A DNA stretch of 64,000 bases from Acidobacteriaceae bacterium (GCA_049796755.1 JBARFA010000005.1:2625-66624), one strand, 5' to 3'. Positions 2,054 to 43,646 are shown, counted from the first letter of the stretch. A program made the numbers and translations. The notes: generated by a model not told the origin, from the letters alone.

Positions 2054-2061
2054 TTGCGCAT

Positions 2062-3821: not shown

Positions 3822-3905
3822 CCTAATGTGTCAAACGGTTGATTCGTGCAGACGGCCGGCATCTGCGAAACTATGGGTATGAGCGGGGAGACGGCGACAG
3901 GCAAG

Positions 3906-4490: not shown

Positions 4491-4624
4491 ATTCTGTGCA
4501 GCATTTCCTCAGATTTTTTTGACGCACGCAAGCGAGTTTGATTTAACGTCTCATGTGGAACGGATATTCCGCCGATACTGTTGGGAAAGATTCCGGCTGA
4601 GACGAGCACCCCGAAAGGAACTGG

Positions 4625-5368
4625 ATGCAATCTGGGAAGAAAGCACCGTTGAAGAAGGCAAAGAGAGCCAGCCGAGGCAAGGCGAAAAGTAAAACCAATC
4701 AACATACAATCTCTGAAAAGAAGCTTGCGCCTCGCAAGAAAGTGGCAGGCAGCGCGAAGTCCGGCACATCGAAATCAATTTCTTCCGGTTCCGCGCTGAA
4801 CGGAAATAAAGGCGGAAAGGTCGCACTGGTTTCCTCCAAGCTCGTGTATCAGGGACCCCTGTTTGACGTGTATACGGACTATGTACGCGAGCCCGAGGGT
4901 GAGACTGCCCGCCGCGATGTGATTCGGCACTCCGGTTCGGTTGTGATTCTCGCGGTGGATGGCACGCGCGACCCGGCCGATCCGATGATCGTCGTCGAAC
5001 GCCAATATCGCCACGCCGCCGGACAGTATATGTGGGAGATTCCAGCGGGTCGCAAGGAGCCGGAGGAAGATGTGCTGCCGGGCGCGAAGCGCGAATTGCT
5101 GGAGGAGACCGGATATATTGCCAAGCGCTGGAGTAAGATCGCGCGGTTCTATGTGAGTCCGGGGTTTCTGGGCGAGTGGATGCAGGTGTATCTGGCAGAG
5201 GGCTTGAGTTGCGGAGAGTCTGCGCCGGATGAGGACGAATATATTCAGCACCAGCAGATTCCTCTATCGCAGGCGCTGGAGTGGGTGGACAGCGGAAAAA
5301 TTATCGACGCAAAATCCATCATCGCAATTTTGATGTATGTGCGTCGTCGCGCCGCTGGAATTTCCTAA
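4625..5368 (+). CDS. NUDIX hydrolase (ADP-ribose pyrophosphatase-like) with Lys-rich N-terminal tail
   Basis: Nudix box GRKEPEEDVLPGAKRELLEETGY. The N-terminal about 70 aa is K/A/S-rich low complexity. Confidence 0.75.
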   Translation: MQSGKKAPLKKAKRASRGKAKSKTNQHTISEKKLAPRKKVAGSAKSGTSKSISSGSALNGNKGGKVALVSSKLVYQGPLFDVYTDYVREPEGETARRDVIRHSGSVVILAVDGTRDPADPMIVVERQYRHAAGQYMWEIPAGRKEPEEDVLPGAKRELLEETGYIAKRWSKIARFYVSPGFLGEWMQVYLAEGLSCGESAPDEDEYIQHQQIPLSQALEWVDSGKIIDAKSIIAILMYVRRRAAGIS

Positions 5369-5611
5369 CAACGATTCCCAAATCGGCACTCTCACGGCAT
5401 CGTCCGCTTGACCTCGAGTGCACCCGCATTTTTCCACAATAAATATCATCTCTTGGGCCGCGAAAAACATCGGGCGATCTGTCTTTCGCCATTTCTTCTG
5501 CTCCACATTCATATTTTTTTCATTCTCTGCATAACAATTCGTTGCTTCCCACGTCTATATCGGCAGGATCCCTTGGCGGTTTCCGATCTGTAGATTAGAG
5601 GTGCGTGTTCC

Positions 5612-5848
5612 GTGTCTCAGCACAAAGGCAAAGTGAAGTGGTTCAATAATGCTAAAGGGTTCGGATTCATTGGGCGCGACGATGGTCCCGATGTATTCGT
5701 GCATTACACAGCAATTCAAACTGATGGGTATAAGAGCCTGAAGGAAGGCGACCCTGTCGAGTTTGACATCGTGCAGGGAGATAAAGGACCACAAGCGGAT
5801 CAGGTGATGCGCTTGCAAGATGCGGTCCACGAGACGATGCGAAGCTAA
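5612..5848 (+). CDS. cspA: cold-shock protein (CspA family)
   Basis: [16 protein letters not shown] (RNP1) and DVFVHY (RNP2). GTG start preceded by AGAGGTG. Confidence 0.9.
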
Positions 5849-6003
5849 CGCTCATCTCCACAGCGGTTTTCTTGAATTGCAGTAGCTTTGCAATGGATTG
5901 AGTTCGTGTGCGCTCACCTGCGTCTCACGCATCCGAAACAATCCAGGCCGTAGTTGTGGTGCGACCGCATGTAATCTGAACCTTCATTCAATATGGCTTC
6001 CTG

Positions 6004-6032
6004 ACCCGGCCCCTGTGCCGGGTTTTCATTTT
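6004..6032 (+). terminator. intrinsic terminator about 155 nt downstream of csp
   Basis: Stem ACCCGGC / GCCGGGT with a 6-nt loop, followed by TTTTCATTTT. Confidence 0.6.
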
Positions 6033-6082
6033 CGTCGGCCGGGTGCGATGATGCCTTCGAGGGCTCGGAATTTTCGTCCGGT

Positions 6083-7837
6083 TTGATCGCCATGGAAAAT
6101 CGCCAGATTGCACAAATATTGTCGGAGACGGCCGACCTGCTGGAAGTGAGCGCGGCCGACTCATTTCGCATTCGTTCCTATCGCCGCGCCGCGGAGGTGG
6201 TGGAGCAGAGCACGATTGCACTGGGTGCGCTGGCGGCGGAGCCAAAGAGATTGCTGGAGATTCCCGGCATCGGCAAAGGGATGGCGGCAAATATTGTTGA
6301 GCTAGAGAAGACAGGCACGCTGAGCCTGCACCAGGATTTGCTGGCCAAATACAAACCATCGATGCTGGAGTTGTTGCGACTGCCTGGCATGGGGCCGAAA
6401 ACAGTAGCACTGTTCTGGGATGCCGCGCAAATTTCAAGTGTTGACGAGTTGGAAGCAGCCTGCAAAGAGGGCCGCCTGGATAACCTGCCGCGGTGTGGCC
6501 CCAAGCAGGTGGCGAAGCTGCTTCAAGGCATCGCGGAATATCGCAAAAACATTGGACGATTCCACCTGGATGACGCCGAGCTGGCGGCAGAAAAGTTGAC
6601 GGAATATCTGCGCAATTGTCCGGGCATTGACCGCGTGACGCCGGCAGGCTCATTGCGCCGCGGGCGGGAAACGGTGGGCGATCTGGATTTTCTGATCACC
6701 GGTCCGGCCTGCGAAGAAGACAAGGTCGCGGCGGTTGTGGAATACGTCGCTGCCTATCCACCCATCGCCGACATTCTTGGCAAGGGACAGAACAAAGTGA
6801 GCTTTCGGCTGCGGCAAGGTTTGCAGGTGGATGTGCGCATGCTGCCGGAAAAAAGTTATGGCGCCGCGCTGCAATACTTCACCGGCTCCAAGCTGCACAA
6901 CGTGTCTGTACGGCAGCGGGCGTTGAAGATGGGCTACACGTTGAATGAATACGCATTGGCGCGTTTGGACGATGGGACCGCGCTACCCAGCCGGACCGAG
7001 GAAGAAATTTATGCAGCGCTCGGTCTCGATTGGATTCCCCCAGAACTGCGGGAGGATTTGGGAGAAATTGAAGCAGCCGCGGAGCAAAGACTTCCCAAGC
7101 TGATCGAGCAGTCTGACATTCGTGGCGATCTGCACATGCACACGAATGAGACGGACGGTAAAAACACAATCCGGGAAATGGCGGATGCAGCATCGGCGCG
7201 CGGCTACGAATATATTGCAATCACGGATCACTCAAAAAATCTTGCCATGACGAATGGCCTGGACGATGTCCGCGCGCTGCAGCACATCGAACGCATCCGC
7301 GCCGTCGATCGCGAGATGGAGGGGCGGATTCGCGTGTTCCCCGGCATAGAAGTCGATATTCTGGTCGACGGAGCTCTCGATCTTTCTGACGAAGTTCTGG
7401 CGCAGATGGATGTAGTTGTGGCCAGCGTGCATTCGCATTTTGGTCAGCCGTCGGAACAGATGACGGAACGAATTTTGCGCGCGATCGAAAATCCTTTTGT
7501 GCGAATCCTTGGACATCCGACTGGCCGTTTATTGCTGCGTCGCGAGGCATACGCTCTCGACCTGGATACTATTCTGAAGCGCTGCGCCGAGTTGGGAGTT
7601 GCGGTGGAACACAATGCCTACCCGGACCGATTGGACCTGAATGATCGCAATCTTCGGCGCGCCCGGGAGCTGGGATGCAAGATTGTTGTGAACACGGATT
7701 CCCACCATACTTCGCACCTGGAAAAGATGCGTTATGGCATTCGCCAGCTCCGCCGAGCCGGCCTGAGGGCGGAAGATGTTGTAAATACAAGGTCAGCGGC
7801 GGAGGTGCTCAGTCAATTGCGTCCTCGAATTCTCTAA
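6083..7837 (+). CDS. polX: DNA polymerase/3'-5' exonuclease PolX (Pol X core plus PHP domain)
   Basis: N-terminal HhH Pol-beta-like region (NRQIAQILSETADLLE, GIGKGMA, GMGPKT), the nucleotidyltransferase motif GDLDFL, and C-terminal PHP motifs GDLHMHT and TDHS. Confidence 0.9.
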   Translation: MIAMENRQIAQILSETADLLEVSAADSFRIRSYRRAAEVVEQSTIALGALAAEPKRLLEIPGIGKGMAANIVELEKTGTLSLHQDLLAKYKPSMLELLRLPGMGPKTVALFWDAAQISSVDELEAACKEGRLDNLPRCGPKQVAKLLQGIAEYRKNIGRFHLDDAELAAEKLTEYLRNCPGIDRVTPAGSLRRGRETVGDLDFLITGPACEEDKVAAVVEYVAAYPPIADILGKGQNKVSFRLRQGLQVDVRMLPEKSYGAALQYFTGSKLHNVSVRQRALKMGYTLNEYALARLDDGTALPSRTEEEIYAALGLDWIPPELREDLGEIEAAAEQRLPKLIEQSDIRGDLHMHTNETDGKNTIREMADAASARGYEYIAITDHSKNLAMTNGLDDVRALQHIERIRAVDREMEGRIRVFPGIEVDILVDGALDLSDEVLAQMDVVVASVHSHFGQPSEQMTERILRAIENPFVRILGHPTGRLLLRREAYALDLDTILKRCAELGVAVEHNAYPDRLDLNDRNLRRARELGCKIVVNTDSHHTSHLEKMRYGIRQLRRAGLRAEDVVNTRSAAEVLSQLRPRIL

Positions 7838-7884
7838 ACTTTCTGTGCTGATTTCCTCGGATTCCGAGTAAACTGCTTGCAACC

Positions 7885-8544
7885 ATGATTACCCCCGAAT
7901 CTTCAGCTCCCGAGACGTCGCAAGAAGAGCCGTCCCTACCGCCCTCGACGCGGACCCCAAATGTGGGTGCGCTCGAGATGGATGAGATTGAGCCAGTCGA
8001 ACCCTGGCGCCCGCTTGTCGTTCCCGGCATTATCGTTGTCATAGGCTTATGCATCGCATGGGCGCTGTTTGCATACTTCGGGCGCTCAAAACCGGATGCC
8101 TCCGCCAGTTTGTTGCGGCAGTATGCGTATCAGGTTCAGGTGGACTCTGGCGCGTCCCCGCAAGGTCCGGGAATGCCGGGGGCGTTGCCGGAGCAGGATG
8201 AGACGGTGCTGCTGGTGCAAGCGCGAGTCACTAATGTCAGCAAAGACCCGCTCACGCTGTTTGACCTGGTTTCCGACATCAAGATGCCGGGGCAATCGAG
8301 CGGCGATGAAAGCTCCGCAGCCCTACCTGAAGATATCGATCGCTTCATGCAGCGCTTTCCGCAATTGACCGCGATGAGCATGGCACCGTTGACCCGCCAC
8401 ACAGTCATTCCGCCGGGAGGTTCTGTGGAAGGTTTGATGGTGTTCGCCTATCCCTGGACGAAGGCGCAATGGACTCAGCGCAAGAGCGGACAGGTCATTA
8501 TCAGTTTCCAGCACGGACGGTCTGTAGCGCTTCCGTTGCAGTAG
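7885..8544 (+). CDS. hypothetical membrane-anchored protein
   Basis: 219-aa ORF with a single TM segment (VVPGIIVVIGLCIAWALFAYF) followed by a soluble domain. No family recognised. Confidence 0.5.
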   Translation: MITPESSAPETSQEEPSLPPSTRTPNVGALEMDEIEPVEPWRPLVVPGIIVVIGLCIAWALFAYFGRSKPDASASLLRQYAYQVQVDSGASPQGPGMPGALPEQDETVLLVQARVTNVSKDPLTLFDLVSDIKMPGQSSGDESSAALPEDIDRFMQRFPQLTAMSMAPLTRHTVIPPGGSVEGLMVFAYPWTKAQWTQRKSGQVIISFQHGRSVALPLQ

Positions 8545-8612
8545 GTCGCATTCATTCGCCAACCAGCGTGATGTAGAAGGTCGCAGAGCGTCTGCGCGAA
8601 TCCGTTTACTGA

Positions 8613-9446
8613 CTACGGAACGAACGGCTTGGGCGCATTCTTTGGCGTTGCCAAGTATCCAGACACTTGATTCTTTCCGATTTGATTGACCACCACTTCA
8701 AAAAGCATCGGGTTTTTCCCGGTATAGAACTGCAGCGGCTCGTCGAGATCGCGATTCTTCTTTTCGATCTTCTTATCGTCGGAGTAAATGACGAGCGTGT
8801 AGCGGGAATGCTTGACGTCAGCTTTCTTCAACTGCAACTTCACGATCGAAATGGAAGATGCCGGCTGCCCTTTGTGCAAGGTAAATTGAAAATATTCGCG
8901 ATCTCCCAGATGCTTCAGGTAATCAAGCTGCTGCGAATTGGTTGCGATCAGGCCGCTCTGCACGCCTAAATCGCCGACAACAGCATGGAGTTGCTGTTCA
9001 GTGCTGGCCAGCTCCTTCTGCGTGGTAACAACATCTTTTTTGACGCCGCCCACATCGGTCTGCACATTGGAAACAGCATGCGAGACGTCTGTCACCTTTT
9101 GCTGGGTCGCCGCCTGTTGTCTGGCCATGCGCGCATTCGCCACCTGCTGTTGGTGCAGGATGCTTTGCGCCCGCAGCTCAATTTGCTGTTGGGTAATGCC
9201 GAGCTTGGCTCCAAACTCGTCGTTAGTTGCCCGCATTTGCCGCCATATTTCCGCATCCTGCGCGGACAGACGGTCGATGTGCTCCTGGGCCTGGGTCAAT
9301 TTTGCTTCGGTGGCGTCGAGCCGGCCTTGCAGGAAATAACTCCACGCGAGCGCGCCGATTGCCAATAAGAAGGAGAGCCCAGCGATCAAAATCAACAGGC
9401 CGGGTGAATTTCTCTGCTCCCCGTATAGGTCGTCATCTTCAGGCAT
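8613..9446 (-). CDS. hypothetical membrane-anchored coiled-coil protein
   Basis: N-terminal TM segment (LLILIAGLSFLLAIGALAW), a long Q-rich helical region, and a C-terminal beta-rich domain. GAGGAG lies upstream of the ATG. Confidence 0.55.
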   Translation of the reverse strand: MPEDDDLYGEQRNSPGLLILIAGLSFLLAIGALAWSYFLQGRLDATEAKLTQAQEHIDRLSAQDAEIWRQMRATNDEFGAKLGITQQQIELRAQSILHQQQVANARMARQQAATQQKVTDVSHAVSNVQTDVGGVKKDVVTTQKELASTEQQLHAVVGDLGVQSGLIATNSQQLDYLKHLGDREYFQFTLHKGQPASSISIVKLQLKKADVKHSRYTLVIYSDDKKIEKKNRDLDEPLQFYTGKNPMLFEVVVNQIGKNQVSGYLATPKNAPKPFVP

Positions 9447-9778
9447 TTCGAAAGAACTCCTCGCATCGTGCGATGCGTTTCAGCAGGACAAGTGATTCAG
9501 GACACTTCGGGTGCGGTCGAACGGCACACACTAGGTTTTCACAAAAACAAGGGTCGCACAAATGACGGAGGACACAGGGCAACAGTTGCGTCGTTGCCAC
9601 AACTGCAGCGATTCCATGCGAACCGCAGAAGGCGAAGCCTGAAGTAACCTGCGAAAGGTACATAAGACGCTGTCTAGCATGACGAACGGCTGGCTTGCAT
9701 TGTAGTATCGAGGTAGGAGTGTAGGGCGGACTGGCACCGGATTCTGCACACAGAAAAACTTGTCTGGAGAACACGAAC

Positions 9779-10912
9779 ATGGCTATGACTGCCGCGGCAC
9801 GCGGGTTGGAAGACATTGTTGCTTCCGACTCAGGAATTTGTCTGATCGACGGAGACGCGGGCGTTTTAGCCTACCGCGGCATTGATATTCATGAGCTGGC
9901 GGAAAAATCGACCTTCCCTGAAACAGCGTATCTATTGTGGTTTGGACGCCTGCCTACCAAGTCGGAGCTTGTCGACTTCAATCAACAACTGACCGCCGCA
10001 CGTGCGCTACCACCTGAAGTGGTGCGGTTGCTGGGAGAATTGCCGAAGGATGCATTGCCGATGGCAGCGCTTCGCACCGCGGTTTCCGCGCTAAGCATGT
10101 ATGACCCGGATCAGGAAGGCATGTCGCACGAAGCAAATGTGCGCAAGGCGTTCCGTTTAACCGCTCAAATTCCTATGATTGTCGCGGTGTTTGATCGCGT
10201 GCGCAAGGCCAAGTCGATCATCGCGCCCGATCCATCTCTTAGCCATTCCGGTAATTTTTTATGGATGTTGAACGGGGAAAAGCCTTCTGCAACGGCCGAA
10301 CGCGCGTTGGATGTTGCCCTGATTCTGCACGCCGATCACGAATTTAATGCCTCCACCTTCGCTGCGCGCGTCATCGTCGCCACGTTGTCTGACATGCATT
10401 CAGCAATTACAGGTGCGATTGGCGCGCTGAAAGGTTCACTGCACGGCGGCGCCAATGAAGCCGTGATGCGCATCCTGTTCGCCATCGATCAAGCGGGTGC
10501 CGATCCAGTGGAATATGTGCGGCAGATGCTGGCAGACAAAAAGAAAGTCCCCGGCTTCGGACATCGCGTATATCGCACCGAAGATCCAAGGGCGACGCAT
10601 TTGCGACGCATGTCGCAGGATCTGGGACGCGCCGACGGCAATCCCAAATGGTTCGACATGTCGCGCAAGATTGAGCTGTTCGTGAAAGAAGAGAAGAAGT
10701 TGAACGCCAACGTGGATTTCTATTCTGCCTCGACTTACACCACGTTGGGCATTGATGTTGATCTGTTCACTCCCATCTTTGCGGTCAGCCGCATTGCCGG
10801 ATGGTCAGCGCACGTGATCGAGCAGTTTGAGGACAATCGACTGATTCGTCCACGCGCCGAATATACCGGACCGGCCTATCCGAACAAGTACGTGGCCATC
10901 GAAAATCGCTAA
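9779..10912 (+). CDS. gltA: citrate synthase (short, type I/2-methylcitrate synthase-like)
   Basis: Catalytic-region motifs LHADHEFNAST, GSLHGGANE and GFGHRVYRTEDPRA. Confidence 0.9.
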   Translation: MAMTAAARGLEDIVASDSGICLIDGDAGVLAYRGIDIHELAEKSTFPETAYLLWFGRLPTKSELVDFNQQLTAARALPPEVVRLLGELPKDALPMAALRTAVSALSMYDPDQEGMSHEANVRKAFRLTAQIPMIVAVFDRVRKAKSIIAPDPSLSHSGNFLWMLNGEKPSATAERALDVALILHADHEFNASTFAARVIVATLSDMHSAITGAIGALKGSLHGGANEAVMRILFAIDQAGADPVEYVRQMLADKKKVPGFGHRVYRTEDPRATHLRRMSQDLGRADGNPKWFDMSRKIELFVKEEKKLNANVDFYSASTYTTLGIDVDLFTPIFAVSRIAGWSAHVIEQFEDNRLIRPRAEYTGPAYPNKYVAIENR

Positions 10913-10940
10913 CTGTTTCCGCAAACCTCCGTGCAACGAT

Positions 10941-10971
10941 AAACCTCGCGGGTCTCCGCGAGGTTTTATTT
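10941..10971 (+). terminator. intrinsic terminator after citrate synthase
   Basis: 8-bp GC-rich stem CCTCGCGG / CCGCGAGG with loop GTCT and tail TTTTATTT. The flanking AAA can extend the stem. Confidence 0.8.
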
Positions 10972-11062
10972 CCGCCGCTGTCACATACATGAGCGAGCCA
11001 TTGCACAGGGGCTTTCGCTACTCTTGTGACACAATAAAGGGTTTGGTCGAGGCACCTTTCTT

Positions 11063-11992
11063 ATGAGTATGAACCCGCTGCGCTCTGCGTTGATTGCGCT
11101 ATCGCAGAACAAACAATTGCGCTCGTTTGCGGAACAGTCCCGCATGGGCCAGAAAATGTCCGGGCGATTTATCGCGGGCATGAATGTTTCTGATGCGTTG
11201 CGCGTCGCCGAGACACTGAACCGCGAAGGCATTCCGGTTTCGCTCGACAGCCTGGGCGAAAATGTCTCCACAGAGGAAGAGGCACGCCGCGCCGCCGACA
11301 TCTATCACCAACTGCTCGACGAGATTCAACAGCGCGGGTTGAAGGCCAACGTCAGCGCGAAGCTGACGCAGATGGGGATGTACATCAGCCCCGCCATTGC
11401 GCGGCAGATTACCACCGAGTTGGTCGACCATGCGGCCGCGACCAATAACTTTCTGCGCGTCGATATGGAAGGCAGCGATCTGACGCAGGCGACCATCGAC
11501 ATGACCCGCGAGATTCATGCCATGCCCAATCATGCGGGCCGCATCGGAACAGTGTTGCAATCGTATCTCTATCGATGCGAAGAAGACGTGAACCTGCTGC
11601 TGGCAGATCGCATTCGCATTCGGCTATGCAAGGGCGCGTACAAGGAACCGCCGACGCTGGCGTTCCCAGAGAAAGCGGTTGTGGACGCCAACTATTTGAA
11701 ACTGACAAAGATTTTGCTGACCAGCGGAGTGTTTCACGGGCTGGCCACACACGATGAAGTGATCATCCGCGAGATCAAGAAGTTTGTGGAACAGGAAGGG
11801 ATCGACAAACGCAGCTTCGAGTTCCAGATGCTCTATGGTATTCGGCGCGATCTGCAAATTTCTCTGGCGAAGGAAGGCTACGGCTTGCGCGTGTATGTTC
11901 CGTTCGGTACGGATTGGTATCCATACTTCATGCGACGCCTGGCAGAGCGTCCGGCCAATGTTTTGTTCATCGCGAAGAATCTTCTCAAGTAG
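11063..11992 (+). CDS. proline dehydrogenase (monofunctional)
   Basis: 309-aa protein with a PRODH beta8-alpha8 barrel pattern (VSLDSLGE, VSAKLTQMG, RVDMEGS, RLCKGAY, ATHD, FEFQMLYGIR). Confidence 0.85.
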   Translation: MSMNPLRSALIALSQNKQLRSFAEQSRMGQKMSGRFIAGMNVSDALRVAETLNREGIPVSLDSLGENVSTEEEARRAADIYHQLLDEIQQRGLKANVSAKLTQMGMYISPAIARQITTELVDHAAATNNFLRVDMEGSDLTQATIDMTREIHAMPNHAGRIGTVLQSYLYRCEEDVNLLLADRIRIRLCKGAYKEPPTLAFPEKAVVDANYLKLTKILLTSGVFHGLATHDEVIIREIKKFVEQEGIDKRSFEFQMLYGIRRDLQISLAKEGYGLRVYVPFGTDWYPYFMRRLAERPANVLFIAKNLLK

Positions 11993-12044
11993 CGGACCTC
12001 AGCGCTTAAAGGCGAATCTCGGCGGCCTCTCAACCCCGGACTAG

Positions 12045-12115
12045 AGTCCGGGGTCTGCCGAAGCGTTGAGTTGCGGAGGCTAATTCAATGTTAAAGTCCG
12101 GGATCTACCGGAGCG
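12045..12115. repeat. two copies of a 21-nt direct repeat in a convergent intergenic region
   Basis: AGTCCGGGGTCTGCCGAAGCG (12045-12065) and AGTCCGGGATCTACCGGAGCG (12095-12115) match at 18/21 positions. Each copy overlaps a hairpin-capable segment. Confidence 0.4.
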
Positions 12116-12118
12116 AGT

Positions 12119-12640
12119 TTAGTAGTCTTCGTCGTAGCGGCGGGTTCTACGATCGCTGCGGCGGTCGCCACCACCACGCAGCAGATCCAGAGTGGCGCGG
12201 ATAGTGTTCATCCATCCGCCAATCTGCCGCAGCGGCGCCATAATGTTGTCCTGAATGGTGCGGGTTCCGCGGGCGATGCCGTCCAGCGTGTCCGTCACCA
12301 TGTTGTCGATGCGAGACACCTGGGTGCGAGTCTTTCCGGTGACATCGGTGACGACGCCGTCGATATGGTTCACTTGATTGCGCAGCGTATCGGTTGCCTT
12401 CTGGACATTTTCGGTGATGGCGCGCATGCGCGGAGTTAAGTCGTCGAGCGTCTCCATGATATTCGCGCTGGACTCGACGATGGTGTGCACTTCGGCTTGC
12501 AGGCGATCAGCCTGCTCCATGATTTTGGCTTGAGCCGCCTTGGCAGCGACGGCAAACACTACCAAGACAATCGTCTGCAAAACAACGGCAAACGTAACCA
12601 CCCCAGTAAATACAAGGAAAACCGTCGATCCGGTTGGCAT
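12119..12640 (-). CDS. membrane-anchored helical-repeat protein (DUF948-like general stress type)
   Basis: N-terminal TM segment followed by repetitive amphipathic helices (TDTLRNQVNHIDGVVTDVTGKTRTQVSRIDNMVTDTL). It sits next to a YtxH gene, as in Firmicutes stress operons. Confidence 0.45.
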   Translation of the reverse strand: MPTGSTVFLVFTGVVTFAVVLQTIVLVVFAVAAKAAQAKIMEQADRLQAEVHTIVESSANIMETLDDLTPRMRAITENVQKATDTLRNQVNHIDGVVTDVTGKTRTQVSRIDNMVTDTLDGIARGTRTIQDNIMAPLRQIGGWMNTIRATLDLLRGGGDRRSDRRTRRYDEDY

Positions 12641-12823
12641 GAAGCCCCCTCATTACGAAATTTGCGCTAGCAGACGCTTGACCCGACCGTGGCTCTGACC
12701 CCATCGGGCGAAATCCGCTGAAAGGGAGCCGAAGTCAGTGGCCTGAGCACAAGTGTAGAACCGCAAGGCACAACTATACCAACGGCGGCAGGAACCGCAA
12801 GGCGCACCTGCCTTTGAGATGCA

Positions 12824-35091: not shown

Positions 35092-37425
35092 ATGACAGTG
35101 TTCTCGCGTGCAATTAAACTCCTAAGCCTGCTTGTTATCGGCGGGGCCTGGAGTTTGCTGGCGCAGGTGAACACAGGCGAACTCCGTGTCGTCGTCACCG
35201 ATCCAGCGGGGCCGGCCGCACATGTGCCTGTCACGGTGAGCAGTGAAGGAACACACTATCACAACACTCTCATCACAAATGCTTCCGGCATTATCGACTG
35301 TAAAGAACTTCCCTTCGGCATGTATTCCGTCCAGGTAGATCGACTTGGTTTTGCGCCTGCATCCATCCGCGCAGACATACACTCCGCAATCCCTGTGAAA
35401 CGCAGCCTGCATCTCGATCTCACTCCCATTACGACCGTGGTCAAAGTGAGTACACCGAACACTCTCATCGATCCTTATATGCCGTCCTCTGTGATGGAGA
35501 TAGGTTCGCAGCAAATCCAGGATCGCGTGAGATCGCTGCCCGGCCGATCGGTGCAGAACCTGGTGAACTCGCAGCCGGGATGGCTGTACGAGGGAAATGC
35601 TGTCCTGCATCCGCGCGGATCTGAATATCAAACTCAATTCGTGATCAATGGCATTCCGCTTACAGATAATCGTTCTCCCAGCTTTGGTCCGGAAATCGAA
35701 GCGAATGATCTGTCGTCCATCAGCATCTATACCGCCGGCTTTCCCGCGGAATTCGGTCGCAAAATGGGCGGAGTCGTGGAGTTGAACACAATTCGCGATA
35801 CCAATCCCGGACTGCATGGCCAGGTGGTGCTATCGGGTGGCAGTTACGATACCGGTTCCGCTTTCACGCAGCTGCAATATCTGCGCGGCAAAAATACGTT
35901 TGGCGCCACAGGCGCGGGCAGCATGACCGATCACTATCTGAACCCGGTTGTCCCGGAAAACTACACCAACACCGGGACGACCGGTGACTTTTCCGGTCGC
36001 TACGAGCGCGATTTTTCCGCTGCCGATCGACTGAGCCTTGGGCTGCGGCATGAGCTTTCGCGTTTTCTAATTCCAAATGAATTGGTGCAGCAGCAGGCGG
36101 GTCAACGCCAGTACGGCGACAACTTTGAAACCATGGGCACCGTTCACGACCAACATACTTTCTCTGCTAACAGCATCGGCACGCTGGCTGGCATGGTGCG
36201 CGACAACTCCAACGACCTCACGTCCAATGCGGCCTCAACGCCGATCATCGTTTTTCAGCATAATCATTTCCGTGAGGGCTACTTTAAGGGGACGTATTCT
36301 CTACACCACGGCAATCAGGAGATCAAAGCCGGCGTCGAATCCGACAACATTTTCCTTGACGAGAATTTTCACGACATTATTACCGATCCATCGCAGTTTG
36401 ATCCTGACACCCCATCGACATTCACCTTCATCGCGAGCCGCCCGGACCTGGAGCAGGCCGCTTTCGTTGAGGATTTGGTGCGCCTCGGCAAGTGGACGGT
36501 GAGCGCAGGTCTTCGCTACGACCACTATCAACTGCTGTTGAATGAGTTCGCATTCAGCCCGCGGCTTTCCGTCGGACGCTATTTTCCCTCGGCCGATCTT
36601 ATGCTGCACTTTTCCTACGACCGCGTGTTCCAGACACCGTCGTTTGAGAATATTCTGCTTTCCAGCTCGCCCGAGGTGGATGCCCTCAGCGATCAATTCC
36701 TGCGGCTTCCTGTGCAACCCTCTCGCGGAAATTATTACGAAATCGGCGCGTCGAAAGCGTTCCTCACGCGCATGCGTATCGACGCGAATATATATCGCCG
36801 CGATACGAGTAATTATGCAGACGACGACCAACTGCTGAACACCGGCATCAGCTATCCGATTGCGTTTAACCACGCAGTCATTTATGGCGCAGAAGGCAAG
36901 TTTGAACTGATTCATCTCGGCAGTTTCAGCGGATTCGTCAGCTACTCCTATATGGTCGGGAATGTTTGGCTGCCCGTCACCGGAGGTCTATTTCTTGGGC
37001 CGGACGCGAGCAGCGCAGCCAGCCAACTCTCCGGACACTTTCCCGATTCGCAGGATCAGCGCAACACAGTGAGAACGCGCTTTCGCGATCAACTGACGCC
37101 ACGCTTCTGGCTGGCAGCCGGCGCGGAATTCAATTCCGGCTTGCCTTTTGACTACACCGGTACGAAAGCGGATGCGATTGCACAATATGGCGCGGCTGTG
37201 GTGGGGCGGTTGAATTTCCCGCGTGGACGAGTAGAGCCGGCGCTGCTGTTCGATGCGACCGCAGCAGCTGAACTCTACAGAAACAAGCGCGTCACCATGA
37301 ATCTGCAGGTCGACGGAACCAATCTGAGCAACCAGCTCGATGTGATCGATTTTGGTGGACTTTTTTCCGGCAACGCCATCGGCCCCGGCCGCAGCTTCAA
37401 TCTCCGACTGAACACCTCGTTTTGA
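35092..37425 (+). CDS. TonB-dependent receptor with carboxypeptidase-regulatory-like N-terminal domain
   Basis: Signal peptide, a CarboxypepD_reg-like beta-sandwich (GELRVVVTDPAG ... GMYSVQVDRLGF), a plug region (NGIPLTDN), a long beta-barrel, and a C-terminal aromatic residue (...NTSF). Confidence 0.85.
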   Translation: MTVFSRAIKLLSLLVIGGAWSLLAQVNTGELRVVVTDPAGPAAHVPVTVSSEGTHYHNTLITNASGIIDCKELPFGMYSVQVDRLGFAPASIRADIHSAIPVKRSLHLDLTPITTVVKVSTPNTLIDPYMPSSVMEIGSQQIQDRVRSLPGRSVQNLVNSQPGWLYEGNAVLHPRGSEYQTQFVINGIPLTDNRSPSFGPEIEANDLSSISIYTAGFPAEFGRKMGGVVELNTIRDTNPGLHGQVVLSGGSYDTGSAFTQLQYLRGKNTFGATGAGSMTDHYLNPVVPENYTNTGTTGDFSGRYERDFSAADRLSLGLRHELSRFLIPNELVQQQAGQRQYGDNFETMGTVHDQHTFSANSIGTLAGMVRDNSNDLTSNAASTPIIVFQHNHFREGYFKGTYSLHHGNQEIKAGVESDNIFLDENFHDIITDPSQFDPDTPSTFTFIASRPDLEQAAFVEDLVRLGKWTVSAGLRYDHYQLLLNEFAFSPRLSVGRYFPSADLMLHFSYDRVFQTPSFENILLSSSPEVDALSDQFLRLPVQPSRGNYYEIGASKAFLTRMRIDANIYRRDTSNYADDDQLLNTGISYPIAFNHAVIYGAEGKFELIHLGSFSGFVSYSYMVGNVWLPVTGGLFLGPDASSAASQLSGHFPDSQDQRNTVRTRFRDQLTPRFWLAAGAEFNSGLPFDYTGTKADAIAQYGAAVVGRLNFPRGRVEPALLFDATAAAELYRNKRVTMNLQVDGTNLSNQLDVIDFGGLFSGNAIGPGRSFNLRLNTSF

Positions 37426-37533: not shown

Positions 37534-40500
37534 CTAGGCGGGAAACAGCCGTTCCTGACGCGAGCGATCTGAATGCGAGTCGATTCCATGATTGCTGCTT
37601 TCGCCGGACGGAATTGATTTCCTTCGCGCGGCTACATGGCGAGGCGGCCGATTCCGAGTTCGGGGATGGTTCGCGCGGGCCTCCATTTCGGGACCAGTTG
37701 TTGCCGATTCCGATTCTGACTTTCCGTCGCGATAGGTGACCACCCGCCCGGAAATCGCGGACGCGCGCTTCCCAGGAACAACGATGTCAACCAGGTTCAT
37801 CGGGTCAGCGGCTGCCACGGCGATGTTTGTCGTGTTGGTCGCATCAGCGTTGCGCGTGCGAGCCAGACGCAGAGATTCAACTGCCTCCGGCAACGCATAT
37901 TGCTCCCCACTAAATCCGCTGACGAATCGCCCGCCACGCACCTCTCCCCGCGCTTCGAGGCGTCGCAACACTCCCAGCAATTCCCGCCACTTTGGCATCG
38001 TTGTCTCTCGTTTCAGCAGGTCACGAAACAAAATTCCATACCGCCGCAGCAAAACCCAGGCTGCTGACTCCATCGCCTCGTCATCGATTCTGGCTTGCTG
38101 CGAAGCGGCGGCATTCAAGACAGCGGCGTTGCGTAGCAGATACCAGCGTCCCGCCGCACTACGCAACCGCTTGCCAGGGTTTTTCATTCGCTGGATATGC
38201 GTTGCGGATTTGCGCTTGGAATCCATAATGGCGCGCAGCTGGTCGAATCCATCCGCAGCAGCTAAACCGGCGGCCGTCAATTCCCAGAGCGCGTGCTCCA
38301 CCTGTTCTGTGGTTAAGTCGGTAGTTCGCTGCAGTTCTTCCACAAAGCAGGCGCCGCGATCTTCCAGGCGCGTTCGAATTTGTTGTGCTTCCTGGCTCAA
38401 CGACTGGCGCAGTTTTGCTTTGTCGACCGCCTGGTTTTCCAGTACGGCGTCCAGCCAGAGCGCAGTCTCGCGGATATAAAACGTGATGGGAGACATACCC
38501 GTGGGAACCACTCTGCGCGGCGCACCAGCATCTGCCGCTGACCACGCCGGATGCGGCGAAACGCGGCCCCAGCCGACCGCACCCGACAGGCACAACTGAT
38601 CGAGCCAGCGAGGATCGTATCCGGTTACTCGATGTACCAGGAGCGACTGTTCCCATTCAACTGCGGGTGCTTCAAATCCTTCCAGTTGCGAGAGTGCCTG
38701 CAACACGCCTTGTTCACCACTCAATTGCGACTGCGGCGCGACGTGCTGCCATGCAAGCACCCACTGCATGTAGACAGCAGCCGACGCAGGCTCGATTTGT
38801 TTGCGCAAATTTCCAATCGTGAGGCGATGAATGCGCTGCAACAGGCGACGTTCGCACCATTCGACATCGAAATCCGAGGATCGTGCAGTTGTAGCGTTTT
38901 CAAAGGTCCCGCGCAGAATCGTTCCCTGCATTTCCAGTTGCAGCAGCTTCTGGAAAGTGTCGGAAGCGGGCAAACCCAGCAGAGATGCCAATGAATTTGC
39001 CGTCACCGGTCCGAGAATTTGCAGCCAACCCTGGACCAGCTTGATCACTGCGTCGCTATAGGCAACTGTATCGGTTACATATTCACCCTCAGACCAAAGG
39101 AATTTGGCCGAGGCTATGTTTTCCGTCGCGACCCAATAACCACCTGTCCGGACCTCCTCGACGCTGGCGCGCCCGGTTCGCTCAAGGCGCTCCAACAGCG
39201 ATGTCCACGAGTACGTTTCCTCCCGCTGCAATATGGACACAGGTAGCGCCACCAGCTGAAAGAGCAGGTCGTGCATTTCATGTTCATCGCGCAGATCCGG
39301 CCAGCACTCCGACCGCACAGCCGCAATCGCAGCCGGGTCGAGCTGCCCCGCATCCGCTTGCATGCTAGCGGGTAAGGTGCGGCGCATCGAGACCGCGCGT
39401 GCGCGACGCTCCTCCAACGGAGCATCGTCCAGAAATGCATAAGGATTCGCGTTCAACAATTCGTGCGCAAACTGTGAAGGAGCAGTGGTATCGATGGCGA
39501 CGCATTGGATCGAACCGTCAGCAAACCCTTGGAGCACGCGCTTCAGGCCGGCCAAGTCCATCGCCTCTCCCAGGACGTCTTTCATGACCTCCCGTACCAG
39601 CGGATGATTTGGAATTTTGCGGTCACCTTGGATATTTTCAAGACAGGCTGATACCTGGGGAAACACGCTGGCCAGAAGGTCGTCGGAACGAGTACGGAGA
39701 ATCTGCGGCGCGACTTTTTTTCCCTTTTGGAACCGTAACAGTTGCAAACTACGTCCCGCAGCCCATGTCCACCGCGACTTGAAGATCGGCGAATCTAATG
39801 CTGCCTGCTCCAGCAGTGCTTGCACCGTTTGCTGCGTGAGGAATTGAAACACATCACTCAGCGGAAAGCTGTGCTGCTCCGCCAGCGAAATGCAAAGGCC
39901 GTTGTCGGTGGCTGCGGCCTGCAATTCAAAATTGAAGCCCCGGCAAAAACGCTTGCGCAACGCCAAGCCCCAGGCCTTGTTGATGCGGCCGCCGAAAGGC
40001 GCATGCAAGATCAGCTGCATGCCTCCACCTTCATCAAAAAAACGTTCGGCAACGATTGTTGTCAGGGACGGCACCGCGCCAAGGGCGGCTCGACCCGCGG
40101 CGATGTAACCAATCATCTGCTCGGCGCCGCCATCGCACACGCCGCACTCCTGCTTCAGCCAACTGGCAGCGTCCGCCACACCCGCATGGGCATGCGACAC
40201 ATGGCCTGGCAATACCTTCGAAGTCCGAGCGGAAATTTCTTCGCGCAGACGCGCCACGTAGCCGCTTAAGACATCCGTGCGCTGCGGGGCTTCACCGGCC
40301 CAGAACGGTAGGTTCGGTGGCTGACCGTGCGCATCTTCAACGAACACTCGTCCCGTTTCGATTCCCTGAATTCGCCAGCTTGTGTTGCCCAGCAGGATCA
40401 CATCTCCCGCCGAAGAATCGATGGCGAAATGCTCATCGAGCGTCGCGATCTGCAGTCCTTCCGGCTGCATAATGACCGCGTATTGTGCGGTGTCGGGAAT

Positions 40501-42072
40501 CGTACCACCATTGCACACGGCGGCGAGTCTCGCACCGCGGCGGGCGTGCAATTCTCCGTGGATCGCATCCCGCATCACGAAAGCTCCATACCGACCGCGG
40601 CTGGATTCGATGCCGCGATGAAGAACCTGGATCAGTTCGTCAAACTCGCCCCGCGTCAGTTGGCGATACGGATGGGCGCGACGCAACACCGAGTAAAGTG
40701 CATCCTCATTCCACGATTCAGCGGCGCAGGCGGCGACAATTTGCTGCATCAAGACGTCGAGCGGCTGAGGTGGAATCTCCAGACGATCCAGGTCGCCGGC
40801 ACGCATTGCCTGCACCAGTGCGGCACATTCGATCAAGTCATCGCGGGTTGTAGCGAAAAAACGTCCCTTCGGAATGGCCCCTCGCCAGTGGCCGGCGCGG
40901 CCAATCCGCTGCATTCCCGCTGCAACTGCGCGCGTAGATCCCACCTGGCAAACAAGATCGATGGCGCCGATGTCAATACCCAGTTCCAGCGAAGCCGTGG
41001 CGACCAACAATTTGATTTCGCCATTTTTCAGCCGGATCTCCGCGTCCAGGCGCAGCTTGCGCGAAAGGCTGCCGTGATGCGCGGCGACATTTTCCGCACC
41101 GATGCGCTCGCCGATGGCATGCGAGAGCCGCTCGACCATGCGGCGCGTATTCACAAACACCAGTGTCGAACGATGCTCCTGTGCAAGCGCGGCCAGGCGA
41201 TCATATGTTTCGTCCCACATGTCATTCGTGGTCACGGAACCGAGCTCTTCACAGGTTGGAACTTCGACCGCAAGATCCATCGTGCGCCGCCGCCCCACCT
41301 GGACGATTTTCGCTGGATCGCGATCTTTCGCGCAGCCAATGAGAAACTCTCCGACCAGCTCGATTGGATTTTGTGTTGCCGACAATCCAATCCGCTGCGG
41401 CGGTTTCGTCGCTGTCGCCACACGCCCGGCCCGAGCGATAATATTTTCACCACACACCAGCGCTTCCAACCGCTCCAGTGACAACGCGAGGTGTGAGCCG
41501 CGCTTGTCATCCGCGACCGCATGAATTTCATCGACGATTACGGTGCGCACATGGCGAAGATTTTCGCGGCTGTTTTTTGAGGTCAACAGGATATACAGCG
41601 ACTCCGGCGTCGTCACCAGGATGTGCGGCGGCTTCTTCAGCATGGCCGCGCGTTCTGACGCCAGCGTGTCACCGGTGCGCACCGCAGTGCGAATTTCGCC
41701 GCACAGATAGCCGCGTTCCAGTGCGAGTTGTTGAATCTCCCTCAGAGGCTGATCGAGATTCTTCTGAATGTCGTTCGAGAGCGCCTTCAGCGGCGAAATG
41801 TACACCACCTCGGTATGCGGAGTCAGGGTGCCTGAAATCGCCTTGCGCAGCAGATGGTCGATGCAAACCAGAAACGCCGCGAGCGTTTTGCCAGAACCGG
41901 TAGGCGCGGAGATCAGCGTCGGATGACCAGCTTGAATATGCGGCCAACCCTCAATTTGCGGTTCTGTGGGTGTAGCAAATCGCCCAACAAACCACTCCTG
42001 CGTGATGGGATGCGCCCAATTGAGACTCGCTGGAATAGCGAGCTCGGCACCGATTTGTAGCGTCGGGGGCAT
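37534..42072 (-). CDS. lhr: ATP-dependent helicase Lhr (large helicase-related, SF2 DEAH with long C-terminal domain)
   Basis: 1512 aa. Walker A APTGSGKT, DEIH box (VIVDEIHAV), SAT (LSATQ), motif VI (QRIGRAGH), and a roughly 700-aa Lhr-type C-terminal extension. Confidence 0.9.
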   Translation of the reverse strand: MPPTLQIGAELAIPASLNWAHPITQEWFVGRFATPTEPQIEGWPHIQAGHPTLISAPTGSGKTLAAFLVCIDHLLRKAISGTLTPHTEVVYISPLKALSNDIQKNLDQPLREIQQLALERGYLCGEIRTAVRTGDTLASERAAMLKKPPHILVTTPESLYILLTSKNSRENLRHVRTVIVDEIHAVADDKRGSHLALSLERLEALVCGENIIARAGRVATATKPPQRIGLSATQNPIELVGEFLIGCAKDRDPAKIVQVGRRRTMDLAVEVPTCEELGSVTTNDMWDETYDRLAALAQEHRSTLVFVNTRRMVERLSHAIGERIGAENVAAHHGSLSRKLRLDAEIRLKNGEIKLLVATASLELGIDIGAIDLVCQVGSTRAVAAGMQRIGRAGHWRGAIPKGRFFATTRDDLIECAALVQAMRAGDLDRLEIPPQPLDVLMQQIVAACAAESWNEDALYSVLRRAHPYRQLTRGEFDELIQVLHRGIESSRGRYGAFVMRDAIHGELHARRGARLAAVCNGGTIPDTAQYAVIMQPEGLQIATLDEHFAIDSSAGDVILLGNTSWRIQGIETGRVFVEDAHGQPPNLPFWAGEAPQRTDVLSGYVARLREEISARTSKVLPGHVSHAHAGVADAASWLKQECGVCDGGAEQMIGYIAAGRAALGAVPSLTTIVAERFFDEGGGMQLILHAPFGGRINKAWGLALRKRFCRGFNFELQAAATDNGLCISLAEQHSFPLSDVFQFLTQQTVQALLEQAALDSPIFKSRWTWAAGRSLQLLRFQKGKKVAPQILRTRSDDLLASVFPQVSACLENIQGDRKIPNHPLVREVMKDVLGEAMDLAGLKRVLQGFADGSIQCVAIDTTAPSQFAHELLNANPYAFLDDAPLEERRARAVSMRRTLPASMQADAGQLDPAAIAAVRSECWPDLRDEHEMHDLLFQLVALPVSILQREETYSWTSLLERLERTGRASVEEVRTGGYWVATENIASAKFLWSEGEYVTDTVAYSDAVIKLVQGWLQILGPVTANSLASLLGLPASDTFQKLLQLEMQGTILRGTFENATTARSSDFDVEWCERRLLQRIHRLTIGNLRKQIEPASAAVYMQWVLAWQHVAPQSQLSGEQGVLQALSQLEGFEAPAVEWEQSLLVHRVTGYDPRWLDQLCLSGAVGWGRVSPHPAWSAADAGAPRRVVPTGMSPITFYIRETALWLDAVLENQAVDKAKLRQSLSQEAQQIRTRLEDRGACFVEELQRTTDLTTEQVEHALWELTAAGLAAADGFDQLRAIMDSKRKSATHIQRMKNPGKRLRSAAGRWYLLRNAAVLNAAASQQARIDDEAMESAAWVLLRRYGILFRDLLKRETTMPKWRELLGVLRRLEARGEVRGGRFVSGFSGEQYALPEAVESLRLARTRNADATNTTNIAVAAADPMNLVDIVVPGKRASAISGRVVTYRDGKSESESATTGPEMEARANHPRTRNRPPRHVAARRKSIPSGESSNHGIDSHSDRSRQERLFPA

Positions 42073-42232
42073 GTTGTGGATTGTACCGGATCGATTCGTT
42101 TTTTATTCGCCAATCTTGGAGACGCGAATCCGCACGCGCAACTCAAGGACGGCTAAATTTCCAAGCTACTGCACCGGCGGCGACTAGCAAGCCCGCTCGC
42201 TACATCCGGGCACTCGCGCATCTCAATAGAGG

Positions 42233-42883
42233 ATGTCGCCGATTGCTCAAAAACGGTTCTCCGCGCTGCCGTTTATCCCCAGCAGCAACAGCCTCGCTAC
42301 ATTGCGAAAGGCTGCGAAGGATTGCGAGGGTTGCCCGCTGTTCCAACGCGCCACGCAAACGGTTTTTGGCGAAGGTGCTGTTCACGCCGCGATGCTTTTG
42401 GTGGGCGAGCAACCGGGCGACCACGAGGATATTGCCGGCAAGCCGTTTGTTGGGCCCGCAGGAAAATTATTGGACAAATGCCTTTCGGAAGCCGGCATTG
42501 AACGCAAGCAAACCTACGTCACGAATATGGTGAAGCATTTCAAGTGGGAGCCTCGGGGAAAACGTCGTCTCCACGAAAAGCCAAACCAGGCGGAAATTTC
42601 TGCCTGCAAACCGTGGCTCGAACGCGAGATTGAAGCGGTGCAGCCGAAGATGGTCGTCGCTTTAGGTGCGACGGCCGCGCAAGGACTACTGGGATCCTCG
42701 TTTCGCGTAACAAAGCAACGGGGCACGGTGTTGCGAATCGAGGGCTATCCGCCAATCCTGGCGACCGTACACCCTTCGTCCTTGCTACGCCAAATCACCG
42801 ATGAAGATCGCGAACGAGAAACACGATTTTTTGTCGCGGACCTGAAGAAGTGCGCGGAATTTATCTCGGGCGAAGCCGGCTAA
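42233..42883 (+). CDS. udgX: UdgX-type family-4-like uracil-DNA glycosylase (Fe-S)
   Basis: Motif A is GEQPG (42404-42418) instead of the family-4 GE[AG]PG. PFVGPAGKLL and HPSSLLR are present. A UdgX-specific insertion VKHFKWEPRGKRRLHEKP carries the KRRxH loop (His codon 42572-42574). Fe-S cysteines are CEGC and ISAC. Confidence 0.8.
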   Translation: MSPIAQKRFSALPFIPSSNSLATLRKAAKDCEGCPLFQRATQTVFGEGAVHAAMLLVGEQPGDHEDIAGKPFVGPAGKLLDKCLSEAGIERKQTYVTNMVKHFKWEPRGKRRLHEKPNQAEISACKPWLEREIEAVQPKMVVALGATAAQGLLGSSFRVTKQRGTVLRIEGYPPILATVHPSSLLRQITDEDRERETRFFVADLKKCAEFISGEAG

Positions 42884-42893
42884 AACCCCTATC

Positions 42894-43646
42894 TCAGTCG
42901 CGACTCCGGACCTTTGCCAACAAATTTAAAATTTCGATGTACAGCCACACCAGGGTGACCATCAATCCAAACGCACCGTACCACTCCATATATTTCGGTG
43001 CCTGGGCGCGCACGCCACTCTCGATGAAATCAAAATCCAGCACCAGATTCAACGCCGCAATGATCACAACCACGACGCTGAAACCAATGCCGATGAGACC
43101 ATTGCCATTGATCGAGGCAAAGTGAATTCCGAAAAATCCCAGCACAATTTCAGCGATGTAGAGCAGCATGATGGCGCCGGTAGCCGCTACAACTCCCAGG
43201 CGAAACTTTTGTGTCACGGGAATTAGCCCAGAGCGATACGCCAGCAGCAAAACCAGCAGGGTTCCGAAGGTGAGACCCACGGATTGCATGGCGATGCCCG
43301 GATATCGCAGCTCGAGAACCGCGGAAATGCTGCCCAGCGCTAACCCTTCCAGCAGAGAGTACACAGGCGCAGTCACCGGAGCCCAGGCCTTTTTGAAAAT
43401 GGTGATCATCGCGAAAACCAAACCTCCGAGCAGGCCGATCCACATGAGGGGAAGGACGCTGGCGGCGGATCGCGTCTGCATGAAGACGTGCCACGCCCAG
43501 GCCGCGGATGCGCCAGCGCAAACCAGCAGAATTCCTGTTTTGTTCACCGTGCCATCCAGCGTCATGGATTCGCCAAGAGCAGCATGCTCGCCCTGAAAGA
43601 TCTGGGAATTCAACGCGGGATTCGAGGTCTTCATTAGTTGCGCCAT
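42894..43646 (-). CDS. Bax inhibitor-1/YccA family membrane protein
   Basis: About 7 TM segments, an SNPAL-type N-terminus, and a charged C-terminal tail, as is typical of the BI-1/YccA family. Confidence 0.8.
   Translation of the reverse strand: MAQLMKTSNPALNSQIFQGEHAALGESMTLDGTVNKTGILLVCAGASAAWAWHVFMQTRSAASVLPLMWIGLLGGLVFAMITIFKKAWAPVTAPVYSLLEGLALGSISAVLELRYPGIAMQSVGLTFGTLLVLLLAYRSGLIPVTQKFRLGVVAATGAIMLLYIAEIVLGFFGIHFASINGNGLIGIGFSVVVVIIAALNLVLDFDFIESGVRAQAPKYMEWYGAFGLMVTLVWLYIEILNLLAKVRSRD

Follow-up and report, generated by a model that had tools for sequence, protein, structure and literature searches.

A probably lineage-specific head-to-head pairing of udgX and lhr in Acidobacteriaceae, with a predicted LexA operator in front of lhr

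The 64,000-nt stretch of DNA from an Acidobacteriaceae bacterium analyzed here (GCA_049796755.1, JBARFA010000005.1:2625-66624; hereafter, the window) contains the genes udgX and lhr, which are transcribed head-to-head from either side of a short spacer and encode, respectively, a uracil-DNA glycosylase (UDG) of the UdgX family and an Lhr helicase (Table 1). An earlier reading of this DNA, made from the sequence alone (the sequence-only reading), had proposed that the two genes form a conserved unit for the processing of uracil or damaged bases; the two open reading frames (ORFs) and the spacer that it described were recovered at exactly the same coordinates. Beyond the BaxI-family gene that faces udgX lie a gamma-glutamyltranspeptidase gene and then an ABC transporter gene, and the G+C content and skew across the udgX/lhr region are unremarkable. 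Transcription of udgX would be independent of lhr. Taken as a whole, the evidence described below is most probably explained by two known DNA-repair genes that came to lie head-to-head in one narrow Acidobacteriaceae lineage and do not constitute a conserved module, udgX coding for a true UdgX and lhr being a predicted SOS gene.

Table 1. Genes and sequence features of the udgX/lhr region, in window coordinates
Feature	Coordinates	Strand	Remarks
TonB-dependent-receptor-like gene	35092-37425	+	convergent with lhr
lhr	37534..42072	-	1512 aa; full-length Lhr helicase; monocistronic
Low-complexity basic tail of Lhr	37537..37746	-	~70 aa; replaces the folded terminal subdomain of E. coli Lhr
Divergent udgX/lhr spacer	42073..42232	.	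160 nt; genes head-to-head
-10-like hexamer TACAAT	42080..42085	-	7 nt before the lhr ATG; conserved in all relatives
Predicted LexA (SOS) operator ATTCGTTTTTTATTCGC	42094..42110	+	xTTCG direct repeat, 11-nt period, just upstream of the lhr TACAAT
Third, inverted half-site GGATTCGC	42124..42131	-	13-16 nt from the direct repeat
Segment missing from L090	~42155..42890	.	~740 bp; udgX and ~80 nt upstream only; from pairwise alignment and tblastn of flanking genes
udgX-proximal conserved element GCGCATCTCAAT	42216..42227	+	5 nt before the udgX ATG; within the segment missing from L090
udgX	42233..42883	+	216 aa; UdgX-family, crosslinking-type, family-4-like uracil-DNA glycosylase; monocistronic
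UdgX motif A, GEQPG	42404..42418	+	residues 58-62 (G58-E59-Q60-P61-G62); invariant in the nine-sequence alignment
UdgX R-loop, KRRLH	42560..42574	+	residues 110-114; M. smegmatis K105-H109 (KRRIH), sole change Ile to Leu
UdgX motif B, HPSSLLR	42770..42790	+	residues 180-186; His180 = M. smegmatis H178, Arg186 = M. smegmatis R184
BaxI-family membrane protein gene	42894-43646	-	convergent with udgX

The udgX product scored 283.5 bits against TIGR03914, the UdgX-specific model of NCBIfam (curated cutoff, 189.95), and 151.2 bits against TIGR00758, the generic family-4 model (cutoff, 125), while Pfam recognized the UDG superfamily domain only (1.4e-35). In a search of the PDB, the best 24 matches were all chains of Mycobacterium smegmatis UdgX (6AIL, 6AJO, 8IIE and others, at ~1e-61), and the identity to 6AIL was 53% over the whole protein; the canonical family-4 UDGs (1UI0, 1L9G) reached just 5e-32 to 1e-30. 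The comparison with both groups, which the sequence-only reading had recommended, placed UdgX clearly closer (1e-61 vs 5e-32). The UdgX name is not new, because the NCBI record identical to this exact sequence is already annotated as 'MAG: UdgX family uracil-DNA binding protein [Acidobacteriaceae bacterium]' (MAG, metagenome-assembled genome).

Residues were mapped on a nine-sequence UdgX alignment that included the M. smegmatis protein, in which the catalytic and UdgX-specific positions are invariant. Within motif A, Glu59 corresponds to M. smegmatis E52, the catalytic dyad partner, and Gln60 corresponds to Q53, a UdgX-specific residue that replaces Ala/Gly (PMC10359453); N98 and K104 correspond to N91 and K97. 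The KRRLH loop lies in VKHFKWEPRGKRRLHEKP, residues 100-117 of the protein, where Arg112 aligns with R107 and His114 aligns with His109, the residue that in M. smegmatis forms the covalent bond to C1' of the abasic sugar. Both the GEQPG motif and the inserted loop with its KRRxH histidine had been singled out in the sequence-only reading as the marks of a UdgX, and both were borne out. Motif B agrees with the form defined for UdgX, HPS(S/A)(L/V)(L/V)R. The predicted 4Fe-4S ligands C31, C34, H102 (in VKHF) and C125 are also invariant in the alignment, and three Cys plus one His, the latter in place of one family-4 Cys, is the ligand pattern reported for UdgX (PMC4787834). Among 90 fetched homologs, the loop His was found in all 90, and GEQPG and motif B were found in 87.

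An ordinary, turnover family-4 UDG that does not crosslink would also pass TIGR00758, as this protein does, and the fold and the Fe-S motif are common to both groups. Nevertheless, this alternative is hardly credible in view of the far higher TIGR03914 score, the Gln in motif A, the 53% identity to a crystallised UdgX and the complete KRRxH loop with Arg112 and His114; according to a published survey, R107 and H109 occur together in UdgX only, canonical family-4 enzymes having P and N at these positions (PMC10359453). Based on these signatures, we assign the protein as a true UdgX, in agreement with the sequence-only reading. By analogy with the M. smegmatis enzyme, whose crosslinking chemistry we infer that it follows, this Fe-S UDG would flip out uracil and cleave the glycosidic bond; the KRRLH loop and Gln60 would then position His114, and Glu59 would activate it, for an attack on C1', so that the abasic DNA would be trapped instead of released, as a covalent, single-turnover protein-DNA crosslink.

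The 1512-aa product of lhr contains, above the Pfam gathering scores, the domains DEAD (PF00270), Helicase_C (PF00271), WH_Lhr (PF19306) and DEAD_assoc (PF08494), with WH3_Lhr and WH4_Lhr (PF23235, PF23234) also above the cutoff. It is 32% identical to E. coli Lhr (b1653) across ~1400 residues, i.e., nearly full length (3e-180). The NCBIfam equivalog cutoffs of PRK13767 and PRK09751 were not reached by this protein (644.7 vs 849 and 642.7 vs 1496, respectively); with the Lhr-specific Pfam domains still passing, it appears to be a divergent member of the family, and it would act as a full-length 3'-5' translocase of helicase superfamily 2 (SF2) with a winged-helix C-terminal array.

The C-terminal domain (CTD) of Lhr, which in the long bacterial form has ~600-700 aa and winged helices in tandem (AlkZ/SecB-like), matches M. 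smegmatis Lhr (7LHL) at 9e-34 over residues ~860-1427, and the match ends ~85 residues before the C-terminus. What follows is the Ser/Arg/His-rich tail, which is conserved in the window, L001 and L082, as observed in a C-terminal alignment with E. coli Lhr. The sequence-only reading had mentioned a reported UDG activity of the Lhr CTD itself. This is correct for E. coli Lhr, where the activity depends on Asp-1536 (PMC10953399), and is not transferable to the window protein because the subdomain with Asp-1536 is replaced there by the low-complexity tail. An Asp in 'HGIDS' meets Asp-1536 only in a gapped, unreliable alignment, and the transfer of the glycosylase site was rejected for that reason.

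Orthologous udgX/lhr spacers, which range in length from 83 to ~162 nt, are conserved at their two ends only and not in the middle. At the lhr end, a ~40-nt block is essentially invariant in 10 genomes (window, L001, L081, L082, L086, L087, L088, L090, L091 and L092). Read on the lhr strand, it has the form GCGAATAAAAAACGAATCGATCCGG-TACAAT-CCACAAC-ATG, in which a direct repeat CGAAT-N6-CGAAT precedes TACAAT; the position of this hexamer, 7 nt before the ATG, suggests that the lhr mRNA is leaderless or near-leaderless. The third, inverted half-site, with which the lhr upstream block covers 42076-42131 of the window, is conserved in 8 of the 10 relatives sampled and is kept in L090, a genome that lacks udgX at this locus. 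At the udgX end, GCGCATCTCAAT is kept at orthologous positions in eight relatives, without a LexA-type box, and the purine-rich 'ribosome-binding site' between it and the udgX ATG is not conserved (CAAAC in L088). This element may belong to the core promoter or to the start region of a near-leaderless udgX transcript. A simple scan of 41900-43000 for sigma-70 promoters and terminators found no -35/-10 pair and nothing informative, and a repeat search of the spacer found nothing beyond short palindromes and one weak direct repeat of 12 nt, missing the operator described below. Of the shared divergent promoter that had been proposed, the 160-nt divergent spacer is real; it is better regarded as two separate proximal conserved elements on either side of a non-conserved middle of variable length.

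The predicted LexA operator of lhr, ATTCG-N6-ATTCGC, is invariant or near-invariant in the 10 genomes while the spacer middle diverges. The same architecture, (A/G/T/C)TTCG-N6-(A/G/T)TTCG(C), was found upstream of imuA in L012, L031 and L074, and upstream of lexA in L071, L019 and L021, which belong to other Acidobacteriota; for instance, the imuA box of L031 reads GCGAATAAAAAGCGAAA and the lhr box reads GCGAATAAAAAACGAAT. A direct-repeat SOS box of the GTTC-N7-GTTC type was reportedly described for Acidobacterium capsulatum by Mazon et al. in 2006. Using a position weight matrix (PWM) built from six independent imuA and lexA promoter sites, which themselves score 19.6-27.5 bits, the lhr site ranked at the top of the 64-kb window with 25.64 bits (runner-up, 13.61), a score reached by 0 of 200 null sequences (null maxima, 15.5 ± 2.4); these figures are to be read with a measure of circularity, since the six sites were first spotted by a pattern inspired by the window site. 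Nevertheless, when only the columns free of this pattern were scored, the lhr site obtained 13.7 bits and the other 56 pattern matches of the window obtained at most 0.5, which answers most of the concern. In addition, the PWM found an untrained site of 23.7 bits in a Terriglobales MAG (L080:9883-9899), 36 nt upstream of a radical SAM gene of the Rv2578c/PA0069 (SplB-like) family (L080:8675-9847, minus strand) that is located 2.4 kb from udgX; this gene class is listed as SOS-regulated in several species (PMC8565304). A direct-repeat SOS box, GTTC-N7-GTTC, is established for Caulobacter (PMC9578287), and in Myxococcus xanthus LexA represses lhr and mitomycin C induces it (PMC12288472).

Since the lhr box matches the boxes of the lexA and imuA promoters, and considering the PWM statistics, lhr is predicted to be a gene under LexA/SOS control in this Acidobacteriaceae lineage; the direct-repeat operator beside TACAAT would place it under SOS repression. 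We regard the box as the operator of lhr because it stays with lhr in L090 and because, across relatives, it lies anywhere from 62 to 141 nt from the udgX ATG and at a fixed distance from the lhr ATG. Apart from the lhr site, GTTC-N7-GTTC and ATTCG-N6-ATTCG (one mismatch) occur in the window at chance frequency; thus, no regulon can be defined inside it from these strict patterns. There is no lexA gene within the 64 kb.

A different arrangement of half-sites was observed in the Blastocatellia-type lexA promoters of L009 (~11350-11420), L013 (~1360-1430) and L041 (~11350-11420), where (A/G/C)TTCG half-sites recur four times, spaced at a period of 10 nt, and overlap a GATAAT -10 box. Sites of the Terriglobia type consist of two half-sites with an 11-nt period, and the LexA operator of Acidobacteriota may therefore vary from lineage to lineage.

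The distribution of the pair was evaluated by scanning a UdgX alignment against one genome per species (GTDB) and keeping the best 80 loci. The UdgX proteins of these loci are 53-81% identical to that of the window and come from Acidobacteriota, Verrucomicrobiota, Actinomycetota, Planctomycetota, Myxococcota, Nitrospirota, Chloroflexota-like lineages and Alphaproteobacteria; 56 of the 80 loci have at least 5 kb upstream, and the flanks amount to 1.2 Mb in total. Using the window Lhr as a tblastn query, we found Lhr near UdgX (within ~10 kb) at two loci. One of them, in the nearest relative L001, shows the divergent layout of the window. The other, L073 (Limnocylindria MAG, 1185-8195), is the only co-occurrence outside the query clade in this sample; its udgX and lhr are 2.4 kb apart with the end of an M23-peptidase-like ORF between them, and its Lhr is 37% identical. 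As ~0.24 co-occurrences are expected by chance among 80 loci (P ~0.2 for one independent case), this single case is unremarkable. No Lhr was found near udgX in the Actinomycetota loci of the sample.

To delimit the clade that carries the pair, we looked up exact proteins and scanned for the motif. The pair was found in nine genomes, namely the window, L001, L081, L082, L086, L087, L088, L091 and L092 (UdgX 76-90% and Lhr ~88-92% identical), and it is absent in L083 and L089 (UdgX identity, 70-71%) and in L084 (65%), where other neighbours were found. L090 (Ga0307374_10011224, 7264-12665), which has the closest Lhr (91%), keeps the ABC transporter-gamma-glutamyltranspeptidase-BaxI-lhr order and lacks only the udgX segment (Table 1); udgX is therefore a single-gene presence/absence polymorphism at the lhr site, which fits the 'sporadic distribution' of UdgX in the literature. 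In evolutionary terms, udgX would be an accessory gene, gained or lost singly at a place flanked by the regulatory region of lhr on one side and the BaxI-family gene on the other. The conserved Lhr-UdgX unit of the sequence-only reading does not hold: the synteny is confined to one Acidobacteriaceae clade, and the adjacency to lhr is broken in related genomes, an outcome that the same reading had named as evidence against its proposal.

Some members of the clade show defects. In L081 (3667-7576) and L086 (1301-5843), lhr is split into two to four ORFs, which are likely frameshifted assemblies and were not used as evidence, and udgX of L091 (4057-4656) has an in-frame stop and GEQPC. These defects are probably assembly or sequencing errors; pseudogenisation may also account for them.

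The proposed partnership would be a dedicated, co-regulated uracil/damaged-base module in which SOS-induced Lhr, perhaps through its CTD, removes or bypasses the UdgX adduct, and several observations lend it weight against the reading preferred here. The head-to-head pair is kept in nine sampled genomes even as the flanks change: the gene beyond lhr codes for a TonB receptor, for a PAS kinase or for a phospholipase B, and the one beyond udgX is BaxI or, in L088, mnmE. This is mild evidence that the pair persists slightly more than synteny alone would lead one to expect. The spacer that the two genes share contains the LexA-type operator, which in L088 comes as close as 62 nt to the udgX ATG, so some co-regulation of udgX by the lhr box is possible where the spacer is shortest, though generally unsupported. 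The substrates of the two proteins are thematically related (uracil, abasic sites and protein-DNA adducts). In E. coli and M. smegmatis, RecA is needed for the processing of UdgX-DNA complexes (PMC4787834), and E. coli Lhr acts on uracil-DNA (PMC10953399). Finally, L073, an unrelated Chloroflexota-like locus, has both genes close together.

Against such a module stand the 78 of 80 UdgX loci across phyla that lack Lhr, the compatibility of L073 with chance, the loss of the pair at UdgX identities of 70% or less, the variable operator-to-udgX distance across a non-conserved spacer middle, the lack of an alignable Asp-1536 subdomain in the window Lhr and L090, which keeps lhr and its operator without udgX and outweighs the persistence through flank changes. 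We consider the module quite improbable, and the resolution of UdgX crosslinks by a translocase, as the sequence-only reading suggested, is speculation. Our literature search found no paper that treats UdgX and Lhr together, and in the main UdgX papers we found nothing on gene neighbourhood or operons.

Clustering of the flanking ORFs of the 80 UdgX loci identified ImuA-like, ImuB-like, DnaE2 and LexA proteins as the real recurrent neighbours. At nine loci, imuA and/or imuB are located within 10 kb of udgX (L009, L012, L019, L021, L031, L041 and L074 of Acidobacteriota, and L032 and L033 of Sorangium), and lexA is near udgX at six loci, lying on the other side in Blastocatellia/Pyrinomonadaceae; examples of these imuA-imuB-dnaE2/lexA neighbourhoods are L012:7794-8591(-), L009:7547-8977(-), L012:2791-4236(-) and L019:10707-11348(+). 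Adjacency of imuA-imuB-dnaE2 to udgX is far more frequent than that of lhr, and in many cases the imuA cassette diverges from udgX, its start lying within ~100 nt. We found no description of a UdgX-mutasome linkage in the literature, the searchable part of which was incomplete. Neither E. coli-type nor Gram-positive-type LexA boxes were found upstream of udgX in the loci inspected, and the radical SAM partner associated with TIGR03914 was not among the recurrent neighbours of the 80 loci. Apparently recurrent clusters of histidine kinase, ParA and ABC ATPase proteins were dismissed as paralog-family clustering artefacts, and the 'imuA' of L051 is recA itself and was not used as evidence.

A separate element, GTAACGCAAAC-gtta-GTTTGCGTTAC, was observed in the imuA-udgX spacer of a Blastocatellia MAG (L019:9909-9973). 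It is an inverted repeat with perfect 11-nt arms, is unlike the TTCG direct repeats and may be the site of a different regulator.

These neighbourhoods allow a second alternative, in which udgX belongs to a general SOS network of Acidobacteriota, lhr is merely its SOS-controlled neighbour in this lineage, and the functional link of UdgX is to LexA-controlled damage tolerance and not to Lhr. Besides the frequency and the often short divergent distances of the imuA/imuB and lexA neighbours, it would account for the LexA-type box of L074, which precedes udgX by 66 nt in the spacer between imuA and udgX. It also agrees with the genetics of UdgX in E. coli, where tolerance of UdgX-DNA complexes needs recA, recB, ruvA, dinB and umuDC, and not uvrB, and where loss of dinB or umuDC aggravates UdgX toxicity (PMC4787834), as well as with the SOS-regulated operons of a UDG (COG1573) and a radical SAM protein (COG4277) in three other groups, Verrucomicrobia, Alphaproteobacteria and Bacteroidetes (PMC8565304). 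On the other hand, ~65 of the 80 UdgX loci have no SOS gene nearby, the loci are not phylogenetically independent, the Blastocatellia imuA-udgX spacers have no obvious TTCG repeat, and in the window the LexA-type box nearest to the udgX ATG, at a distance of 123 nt, is that of lhr. We hold this alternative to be possible, with somewhat less than an even chance. Its bolder extension, in which acidobacterial udgX is part of the LexA damage-tolerance network, standing repeatedly head-to-head with promoters that carry LexA-type boxes (those of imuA-imuB-dnaE2, with lexA alongside, in Blastocatellia and other lineages, and that of lhr here), and the crosslink is a deliberate intermediate passed to translesion synthesis by the SOS mutasome or, here, to the Lhr translocase, seems unlikely, and the feeding of UdgX adducts into LexA-controlled damage tolerance is proposed as a hypothesis of modest probability.

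UdgX is famous for its biochemistry and serves as a tool for uracil mapping and base editing. We know of no cellular role established for it. To find a conserved partner would have been a genuine clue to this role, and Lhr is not that partner. Two by-products of our analysis are the most useful, namely the LexA operator predicted for lhr and the SOS genes that recur beside udgX. The acidobacterial LexA box is readable from the lexA, imuA and splB-like promoters and puts lhr in the predicted SOS regulon of an Acidobacteriaceae lineage. The second by-product, udgX beside imuA-imuB-dnaE2 and lexA, agrees with the dependence on RecA, DinB and UmuDC and shows where to seek a physiological partner; if true, a UdgX crosslink handed over to the SOS machinery would give this enigmatic suicide glycosylase a physiological pathway.

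Among known systems, M. smegmatis UdgX (MSMEG_0265; PDB 6AIL, 6AJO, 8IIE) shares with the window protein GEQPG, the KRR(I/L)H loop, HPSSLLR and the Fe-S ligand pattern. The two differ in host phylum, in the R-loop, which here is two residues shorter (KW-EPRG-KRRLH vs KFTRAAGG-KRRIH), a form common to all the acidobacterial homologs, and in Glu115, which is found here in place of Lys110. Canonical family-4 UDGs, such as Thermus thermophilus UDGA (1UI0) and Thermotoga maritima TM0511 (1L9G/1VK2), have in common with the window protein the fold family, the Fe-S cluster and motif B; in contrast, they carry GE(A/G)PG, have P/N at the signature positions without a KRRxH loop, and are turnover enzymes, whereas the window protein has the UdgX versions of these elements. 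In the COG1573/COG4277 SOS operon, a family-4-type UDG is tied to the LexA regulon, and acidobacterial udgX is likewise found beside lexA and imuA-imuB-dnaE2; unlike that operon, udgX of the window has no adjoining radical SAM gene, its neighbour is lhr, and the box belongs to lhr. Regarding lhr, LexA repression has been shown in Myxococcus xanthus and is predicted here from a conserved operator sequence, and the box is of the direct-repeat alphaproteobacterial/acidobacterial type and not of the myxobacterial type. The window Lhr has the domain order of the full-length bacterial Lhr proteins of E. coli (b1653) and M. smegmatis (PDB 5V9X/7LHL), i.e., SF2 core, winged helix, DEAD_assoc and C-terminal winged-helix array. 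Its gene context differs from that of E. coli, rnt-lhr, and from that of mycobacteria, lhr-nei2.

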